Source of the DNA: Escherichia coli
Lineage (GTDB): Bacteria; Pseudomonadota; Gammaproteobacteria; Enterobacterales; Enterobacteriaceae
Length of the DNA stretch: 64,000 nucleotides
Direction: 5' to 3' (one strand)
NCBI RefSeq assembly: GCF_003334815.1
Contig: NZ_QOWO01000008.1
Each line of letters opens with the position of its first letter. The first letter of the stretch is position 1. Of this stretch, positions 57,392-57,589 are shown in pieces. The notes beneath the pieces are model-generated. The model was not told the origin of the DNA, did no database searches, and worked only from the letters and a program-made list of their open reading frames with translations. A program made the position numbers and the translations under genes.

Positions 57392-57415
57392 GAAAAAACC
57401 CCGCCGGTGGCGGGG
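57392..57415 (-). terminator. Rho-independent terminator at the end of the fliC 3' UTR
   Basis: ccccgccaccggcgggg hairpin followed by T6 on minus strand. Confidence 0.7.
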
Positions 57416-57424
57416 AAGCACGTT

Positions 57425-57555
57425 GCTGACAAATTACCATTCATGTTGCCGGATGCGGCGTAAACGCCTTATCCGGCCTACAAAAATGTGCGAATTCAAT
57501 AAATTGCAATTCAACTTGTAGGCCTGATAAGCGCAGCGCATCAGGCAATTTGGCG
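57425..57555. repeat. REP/BIME cluster inside the fliC 3' UTR
   Basis: gccggatgcggcgtaaacgccttatccggcctac plus inverted gtaggcctgataagcgcagcgcatcaggca. Confidence 0.8.
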
Positions 57556-57589
57556 TTGCCGTCAGTCTCAGTTAATCAGGTTAGGACGA

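Follow-up and report, generated by a model that had tools for sequence, protein, structure and literature searches.

What is the long 3' untranslated region (3' UTR) of the flagellin gene fliC in this strain of Escherichia coli, which holds inverted REP units ahead of its terminator: the source of a small RNA (sRNA), a device acting on the fliC mRNA, or a DNA element that happens to be transcribed? We analyzed the region within the window, i.e., the whole stretch of 64,000 nt that was taken from contig NZ_QOWO01000008.1 (assembly GCF_003334815.1). The genes and signals around the 3' UTR are listed below in window positions.

59379-59405, minus strand: sigma-28 promoter of fliC, TAAAGGTT-N11-GACGATAA, which would drive the parent transcript of FliX
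57590-59302, minus strand: fliC flagellin CDS, 570 aa, parent mRNA of FliX (from the list of open reading frames and NCBIfam NF005953)
57393-57415, minus strand: intrinsic terminator, 3' end of the fliC mRNA and of FliX, with 7 G-C pairs, a 3-nt loop and six U
56551-57270, minus strand: fliA, downstream of fliC

The product of fliC was assigned to the FliC/FljB family of flagellins by an NCBIfam profile search (NF005953, 729 bits against a cut-off of 619), and the identical record NZ_AP022177.1 labels it as flagellin. The promoter matches the sigma-28 consensus, TAAAGTTT-N11-GCCGATAA, and the promoter and leader sequence preceding the fliC ATG (114 nt) is identical to that of K-12 at all 114 positions. 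At the other end of the gene, the stop codon is TAA at 57592-57590, and the single strong terminator-like site between fliC and fliA is found at 57415-57393, where the hairpin CCCCGCCACCGGCGGGG followed by TTTTTT occupies 57415-57399 and the U-tract runs to 57393. The foot of the hairpin is 174 nt from the fliC stop, and the U-tract ends at 197 nt, which is the length of the 3' UTR. The original prediction had put about 200 nt between the stop and the terminator hairpin, in agreement with these distances and with the interval 57392-57589. A query of 401 nt around the 3' UTR was 100% identical to NZ_AP022177.1 and had a full or partial match in every complete E. coli genome of the 5,426 compared. 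A dual-function (coding) RNA was considered and rejected, as no small ORF of the interval exceeds 39 aa on either strand and none has support.

We regard it as very probable, judging from homology to K-12, that the interval 57392-57589 is the fliX gene and that its transcript is the known Hfq-binding sRNA FliX. The RefSeq record of E. coli K-12 MG1655 (NC_000913.3) lists an ncRNA, fliX (b4827, 'small RNA FliX', 2001912..2002106), which begins 4 nt past the stop codon of fliC and extends as far as the U-tract of the terminator. FliX was described by Melamed et al. (2023, eLife 12:RP87151; PMC10578931) as a sigma-28-dependent, Hfq-bound sRNA cut from the fliC mRNA's 3' UTR, with Hfq-bound species of ~200 nt (FliX) and ~100 nt (FliX-S) on northern blots, the shorter of which holds one REP sequence from downstream of fliC. 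The FliX reagents given in Supplementary file 3 of that study were mapped onto the window and located the RNA species and the seed as follows.

57393-57586, minus strand: FliX, full-length 3'UTR-derived sRNA, 194 nt (195 nt in K-12), 187/195 identity to b4827, 5' end placed by SM044
57393-57497, minus strand: FliX-S, short processed form, 105 nt, 5' end placed by SM673
57433-57419, minus strand: FliX seed UUUGUCAGCAACGUG, identical to K-12, placed by primer SM644 (M1) together with the compensatory rpsS-M1 gBlock
57586-57563: SM044, cloning primer for FliX +1, 2 mismatches
57497-57473: SM673, cloning primer for FliX-S +1, 1 mismatch
57436-57409: SM043, northern probe, 1 mismatch
57368-57347: SM045, reverse primer, 0 mismatches

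The segment 57586-57393 and K-12 fliX were aligned end to end with 187 of 195 positions identical, and none of the 8 differences falls in the seed, in either REP unit or in the stem of the terminator. The published M1 seed mutation, GCA to CGU, falls at 57426-57424 and turns GUCAGCAACGUG into GUCACGUACGUG, and the compensatory rpsS-M1 fragment confirms the seed as UUUGUCAGCAACGUG. The lengths predicted from the homologous 5' ends, 194 and 105 nt, stand against the published ~200 and ~100 nt. Comparison with the K-12 coordinates thus puts the reported FliX in the interval and not away from it. With b4827 aligned in this manner, and with the cloning primers, the northern probe and the seed mutation all inside the interval, the proposal that a FliX-type sRNA derives from the fliC 3' UTR holds: the FliX locus is a correct identification, albeit of an sRNA already described and annotated in K-12. 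For the strain studied here, we infer expression, the processing sites and Hfq binding from the identity of ~96%.

The two loci are alike in position and strand, differ by 1 nt in length, and share an identical seed, identical REP units, an identical terminator stem and an identical sigma-28 promoter. They differ at FliX +2/+3, where CC replaces TG (UCC here, UUG in K-12) at the first processing site, so the FliX 5' end could shift in this strain. Further differences are one base of the linker, at FliX-S +6; a U-tract shorter by one U; and the four bases immediately 5' of the seed, AUGAAUGGUAAU as opposed to AUAAAGCGCAAU, a variant that is present in other strains too and thus represents a common allele. 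The parent gene is also of another H-type, encoding 570 aa in contrast to 498 aa in K-12. As a separate observation on annotation, fliX was not annotated by PGAP in six other fliX-bearing E. coli records of which the feature tables were examined (L022, i.e., NZ_AP022177.1, and L001 and L016-L019); among the feature tables examined, only that of the curated K-12 MG1655 record NC_000913.3 lists fliX.

The body of the putative sRNA is made of a repeat with the following parts.

57546-57518, minus strand: REP unit of Y type, GCCTGATGCGCTGCGCTTATCAGGCCTAC (GCCTGATGCG..CTTATCAGGCCTAC), own hairpin -13.2 kcal/mol
57484-57517, minus strand: long (L) linker of BIME-1, 34 nt, holding the 5' end of FliX-S (57497)
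57481-57448, minus strand: REP unit of Z type, inverted relative to Y, GTAGGCCGGATAAGGCGTTTACGCCGCATCCGGC, hairpin -20.9 kcal/mol, the 5'-proximal hairpin of FliX-S

The two inverted REP units that had been noticed in the UTR were recovered as the Y and Z units above, their arms being 94% complementary and detected as inverted-repeat pairs (I1, I4 and I5). The tail motif of REP, CTTATCMGGCCTAC, was counted 7 times in the window where 0.45 would be expected, and none of 100 shuffles reached 7. For parts of the REP units, the median number of repeat matches in an E. coli genome is 29. A search of a REP consensus with a fixed 11-nt loop returned no match, because the REP units have 3- or 4-nt loops and stems of unequal length. 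According to Ton-Hoang et al. (PMC3333891), BIME-1 is a single-copy pair of z1 and y REP units with a long, well-conserved L linker that often holds an IHF site. The element in the fliC UTR fits this definition, although its second REP unit was typed at the level of Z (z1 or z2). The window possesses a second BIME-1 at 10678-10798, arranged as Z REP, L linker and Y REP, of which the linker is homologous to that at fliC; a shorter REP pair lacking the L linker was found at 470-565. The fliC element shares with other members of BIME-1 (RIP/RIB elements) the inverse Y and Z units, the single copy, the homologous 34-nt L linker and an IHF-like motif. It differs from BIME-1 in general in being transcribed within a functional sRNA, one 5' end of which falls in the linker.

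In the proposed mechanism, fliC would be transcribed from the sigma-28 promoter and transcription would stop at the terminator at 57415-57393, both sequences being present. The mRNA would then be cut 4 nt past the fliC stop to release FliX (~195 nt), and a second cut within the BIME-1 linker would yield FliX-S (~105 nt); both sites were mapped by homology to the 5' ends in K-12. The predicted FliX-S carries the Z REP hairpin, the seed UUUGUCAGCAACGUG in single-stranded form, and the terminator with its U-tail, which is presumed to be the Hfq-binding module of FliX. The BIME would supply a processing site and protective hairpins. Since the fliC mRNA would end with the Y REP at its 3' side once the linker is cut, and FliX-S would have the Z REP close to its 5' end, the repeat may protect both products.

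This layout has relatives. FlgO (from flgL), CpxQ and SdhX are 3'UTR-derived, Hfq-binding sRNAs processed from their parent mRNAs. FliX has in common with these, and with MicL, that it is released from a parent mRNA by an endonuclease, that its single-stranded seed is placed immediately 5' of the intrinsic terminator of the parent gene, and that a U-tail serves Hfq. Unlike them, it contains a mobile BIME in the sRNA body, and its pairing sites lie within coding sequences instead of ribosome-binding sites. Separately, Rfam models matched elsewhere in the window at gathering level: MicL itself at 14698-15005 (minus strand, 381.9 bits), C0465 RNA at 28996-29073 (plus strand, 111.6 bits), and three tRNA genes within 47299-47598 (minus strand).

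The predicted structure of FliX suggests a role for the second cut. The 194-nt FliX folds at -68.4 kcal/mol, against -52.9 +/- 4.4 kcal/mol for shuffled sequences (z = -3.5). In both the minimum-free-energy (MFE) and centroid folds of the full-length RNA, the two REP units pair with each other, whereas a structure with local hairpins only reaches -60.5 kcal/mol. One more segment is relevant to the seed.

57547-57586, minus strand: unique 5' segment of FliX, containing CUGACGG (57565-57559, FliX nt 22-28)

In the same two folds, a predicted duplex joins CUGACGG to the UUGUCAG portion of the seed. The predicted cost of opening the seed is 6.1-6.7 kcal/mol in FliX but 3.2-3.4 kcal/mol in FliX-S, both in the strain studied here and in K-12. 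The CUGACGG segment and the REP-REP duplex may therefore hide the seed partly in full-length FliX, which would explain FliX-S as the more active form. The easier opening in FliX-S fits the stronger effect published for FliX-S than for FliX (PMC10578931). An imperfect direct repeat, which could be a matter of chance, was also seen between the 5' part of FliX (TGACGGCAACG, 57554-57564) and the seed (TGTCAGCAACG, 57421-57431), matching at 9 of 11 positions.

In K-12, FliX pairs inside the coding sequences of rplC, rpsS, rpsQ and fliC, and leads to a lower flagellin level, fewer flagella and reduced activity of class 2 and class 3 promoters (PMC10578931). The chromosomal seed mutant of K-12 was modest in phenotype, with slightly more flagella late in growth and unchanged motility (PMC10578931). 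By homology, the seed would pair together with Hfq in the same four coding sequences here, those of the S10-operon genes rplC, rpsS and rpsQ and that of fliC, and the pairing would lower the mRNA levels of the targets and reduce flagellin and the number of flagella. The target fragment of rpsS was found in 5,426/5,426 E. coli genomes, in 5,237 of them at 99% identity or higher, and the duplex between the seed and rpsS was predicted at -19.8 kcal/mol, at the site mutated in Melamed et al. (2023). For fliC, the best seed site predicted in K-12 lies at CDS nt ~399-420 (-18.3 kcal/mol), within the published footprinting fragment of fliC 171-460. The homologous site here (CDS nt 391-440, window 58912-58863) has five changed positions and was predicted at -8.5 kcal/mol. 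An alternative site occurs at CDS nt 1639-1668 (window 57664-57635), GUGCUGGCAAA, towards the 3' end of fliC; a C in place of the U of K-12 accounts for its predicted -19.8 kcal/mol. The duplexes score marginally better than those of shuffled seeds, of which 3-4 in 60 were equal, and the fliC sites are to be read as a lead rather than a result. With the best pairing site of K-12 lost by prediction, the autoregulation of fliC may differ in this strain. One more sequence that could pair with all 15 nt of the seed, one of the pairs being G.U, is CACGTTGCTGACGAA at 16218-16232 (plus strand), in the intergenic region between yecM and argS, ~90 nt upstream of the argS start. This is probably a chance match rather than a target of FliX: the site would overlap a promoter-like TTGACG...TATACT and is thus probably not transcribed in the sense needed.

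How widely the locus is shared was surveyed in 5,426 complete E. coli genomes, a set biased to clinical isolates so that the counts below are not population frequencies.

Long UTR, 401-nt query matched over at least 80% at a single place: 3,502 of 5,426 genomes
Unique 5' segment of FliX (44-nt query), single copy per genome: 3,276 of 5,426 genomes
Short type 1 (SaT040 and HUSEC2011, O104:H4-like; H4/ST131): 785 of 5,426 genomes
Short type 2 (O103:H2, O111 and 2015C-3101; H2/H11): 865 of 5,426 genomes

The long UTR is thus found in ~60-65% and the short alleles in ~30% of this set. A megablast search with 54 nt of the seed and terminator recovered 2,643 genomes, an undercount of the carriers, since the 28-nt word is interrupted by SNPs. 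Short alleles of either type have 18-19 nt between the fliC stop and the same terminator, without a BIME, and the FliX seed is absent from the four short-allele loci examined by sequence (L002, L003, L004 and L020). The terminator was kept in every fliC allele examined, long and short, and the sequence from the terminator to fliA was identical across them in the alignment. The main text of PMC10578931 does not mention the polymorphism between long and short UTRs. A natural variant of the seed, UUUGUCAGCAAUGUG (C to U), was observed in an O1:K1:H7 strain (L016, 368-381), in which the Y REP and the terminator loop are changed too.

Outside E. coli, an exact scan of the 18-mer seed over 100,044 species representatives returned 11 matches, all in unrelated taxa, where ~9 were expected by chance, and no orthologue was recovered. 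The species representative of E. coli probably carries the C-to-U variant of O1:K1:H7, which would explain why E. coli itself is missing from the matches. The corresponding loci of other genera were reached via homologues of FliA. In Enterobacter-type loci (L024, 2826-2890, and L027), the fliC stop, TTCGCAATTTGCCGACAAA and the terminator follow one another, giving a 3' UTR of 19 nt without a BIME, and the module CGCAATTTGCCGACAA stands directly after the stop. The Enterobacter-type TTCGCAATTTGCCGACAAA agrees with CGCAATTTGTCAGCAA, the 5' half of the seed region in K-12, at 13 of 16 positions and occupies the same place relative to the terminator. [quoted passage not shown] Both kinds of loci thus retain a stretch resembling the seed beside the terminator. 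The head of the short UTR of the H4 type in E. coli, TGGCCTTAACCTG, resembles that of the long UTR, TCGTCCTAACCTG, at 10 of 13 positions when read by eye, albeit in a register different from that of MAFFT. These short alignments suggest, somewhat short of making it probable, that the long UTR is composite in origin, with an older module of seed and terminator to which a UTR head and BIME-1 were added later. With the same strength, FliX may be an accessory rather than a core sRNA, tied to particular fliC alleles. Under such a scenario, the seed-terminator module appears to have been displaced by ~150 nt from the fliC stop by the new UTR head and BIME-1.

The same repeat may be read as acting mainly in cis on the fliC mRNA, with the REP hairpins blocking 3'-to-5' exonucleases, attenuating transcription in a partly Rho-dependent manner, or both. 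The stability of the fliC mRNA and the read-through to fliA would then be tuned by the BIME, and the sRNA fragments would be by-products of decay. We consider this possible but rather doubtful as the main role, while noting that it is compatible with a function of FliX. REP units and BIMEs are documented, depending on context, as stabilizers and partial terminators in other operons (introduction of PMC3333891; Harris et al., 2026 preprint, 10.64898/2026.03.23.713779), and the suggestion that those at fliC serve as an mRNA stability element is plausible and fits this general literature. The upstream product predicted for the cut in the linker ends shortly past the stable Y-REP hairpin, and the element is lacking from ~30% of the E. 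coli genomes, as would be expected of a tuning device as opposed to a core regulator. However, a 3' hairpin that would protect the mRNA is already given by the strong intrinsic terminator, 30 nt downstream and present in the short alleles as well, and the effects of REP on half-life are not uniform (10.64898/2026.03.23.713779). The homologue in K-12, moreover, exerts seed-dependent effects in trans that respond to compensatory mutations in rpsS (PMC10578931). The comparison with REP325/naRNA4 (10.64898/2026.03.23.713779) has two sides: REP hairpins in a 3' UTR between tandem genes, possibly acting as stabilizers or attenuators, are common to the two systems, but REP325 is an array of six units without a seed or an intrinsic terminator, whereas at fliC one BIME-1 stands alone, with a seed and a strong terminator after it.

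We find it unlikely that BIME-1 serves at the DNA level, as a putative site of IHF (possibly of gyrase or Pol I) between fliC and the fliA promoter that would have a topological or architectural role, with its transcription being incidental. The L linkers of BIME-1 frequently hold an IHF site (PMC3333891), and the linker at fliC does contain an IHF-like motif, ATTCAATAAATTG at 57494-57506 (plus strand), one mismatch from WATCAANNNNTTR and shared with the other BIME-1 of the window. Nevertheless, the window shows no enrichment of the IHF pattern when up to one mismatch is allowed (70 found against 60 +/- 8 expected), so that the motif alone proves nothing, and we rejected it as independent evidence, its frequency being as in shuffled sequences. 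In addition, strains that have the BIME and strains that lack it share an identical region upstream of fliA, implying that the control of fliA does not require it. A separate sRNA gene, whether ES036/CssrF on the plus strand (57484-57525), opposite FliX as an antisense RNA, or a nucleoid-associated RNA resembling naRNA4, is highly improbable and was rejected, the Rfam matches being those to a repeat family: ES036 scores 38.1 bits (gathering score 37.6) but matches the linker of the other BIME-1 too (10720-10762, 45.5 bits) and hence recognizes the repeat and not the locus, the naRNA4 (CssrE) matches of 41.9, 22.0 and 18.1 bits are all below the gathering score of 59.5 with the partial match of 41.9 bits spanning a single REP hairpin out of the 77-nt model, no plus-strand promoter-like site was found within or near 57484-57525 apart from one downstream inside fliC (57679-57708), and the nucleoid role of naRNA4 is itself disputed by the work on REP325 (10.64898/2026.03.23.713779).

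Returning to the interval as fliX, we note that the result confirms that a reader of the raw sequence can recognize a published sRNA locus, and that the transfer of the fliX annotation to E. coli records has some practical value. It is of moderate interest that the body of a functional Hfq-binding sRNA, along with one of its processing sites, is made by a BIME repeat. Only this role of the BIME and the allele-linked presence or absence of FliX might merit follow-up. The presence or absence of fliX follows the fliC allele; if the accessory and composite reading is true, major pathogenic lineages, among them those of the ST131/O104:H4 type and of the O103:H2/O111 type, would lack the FliX branch that links flagellar and ribosomal-protein synthesis, even though the rpsS target is invariant. 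Because the chromosomal seed mutant of K-12 has mild phenotypes only, the allele polymorphism would be useful as a natural experiment on the purpose of FliX in E. coli.
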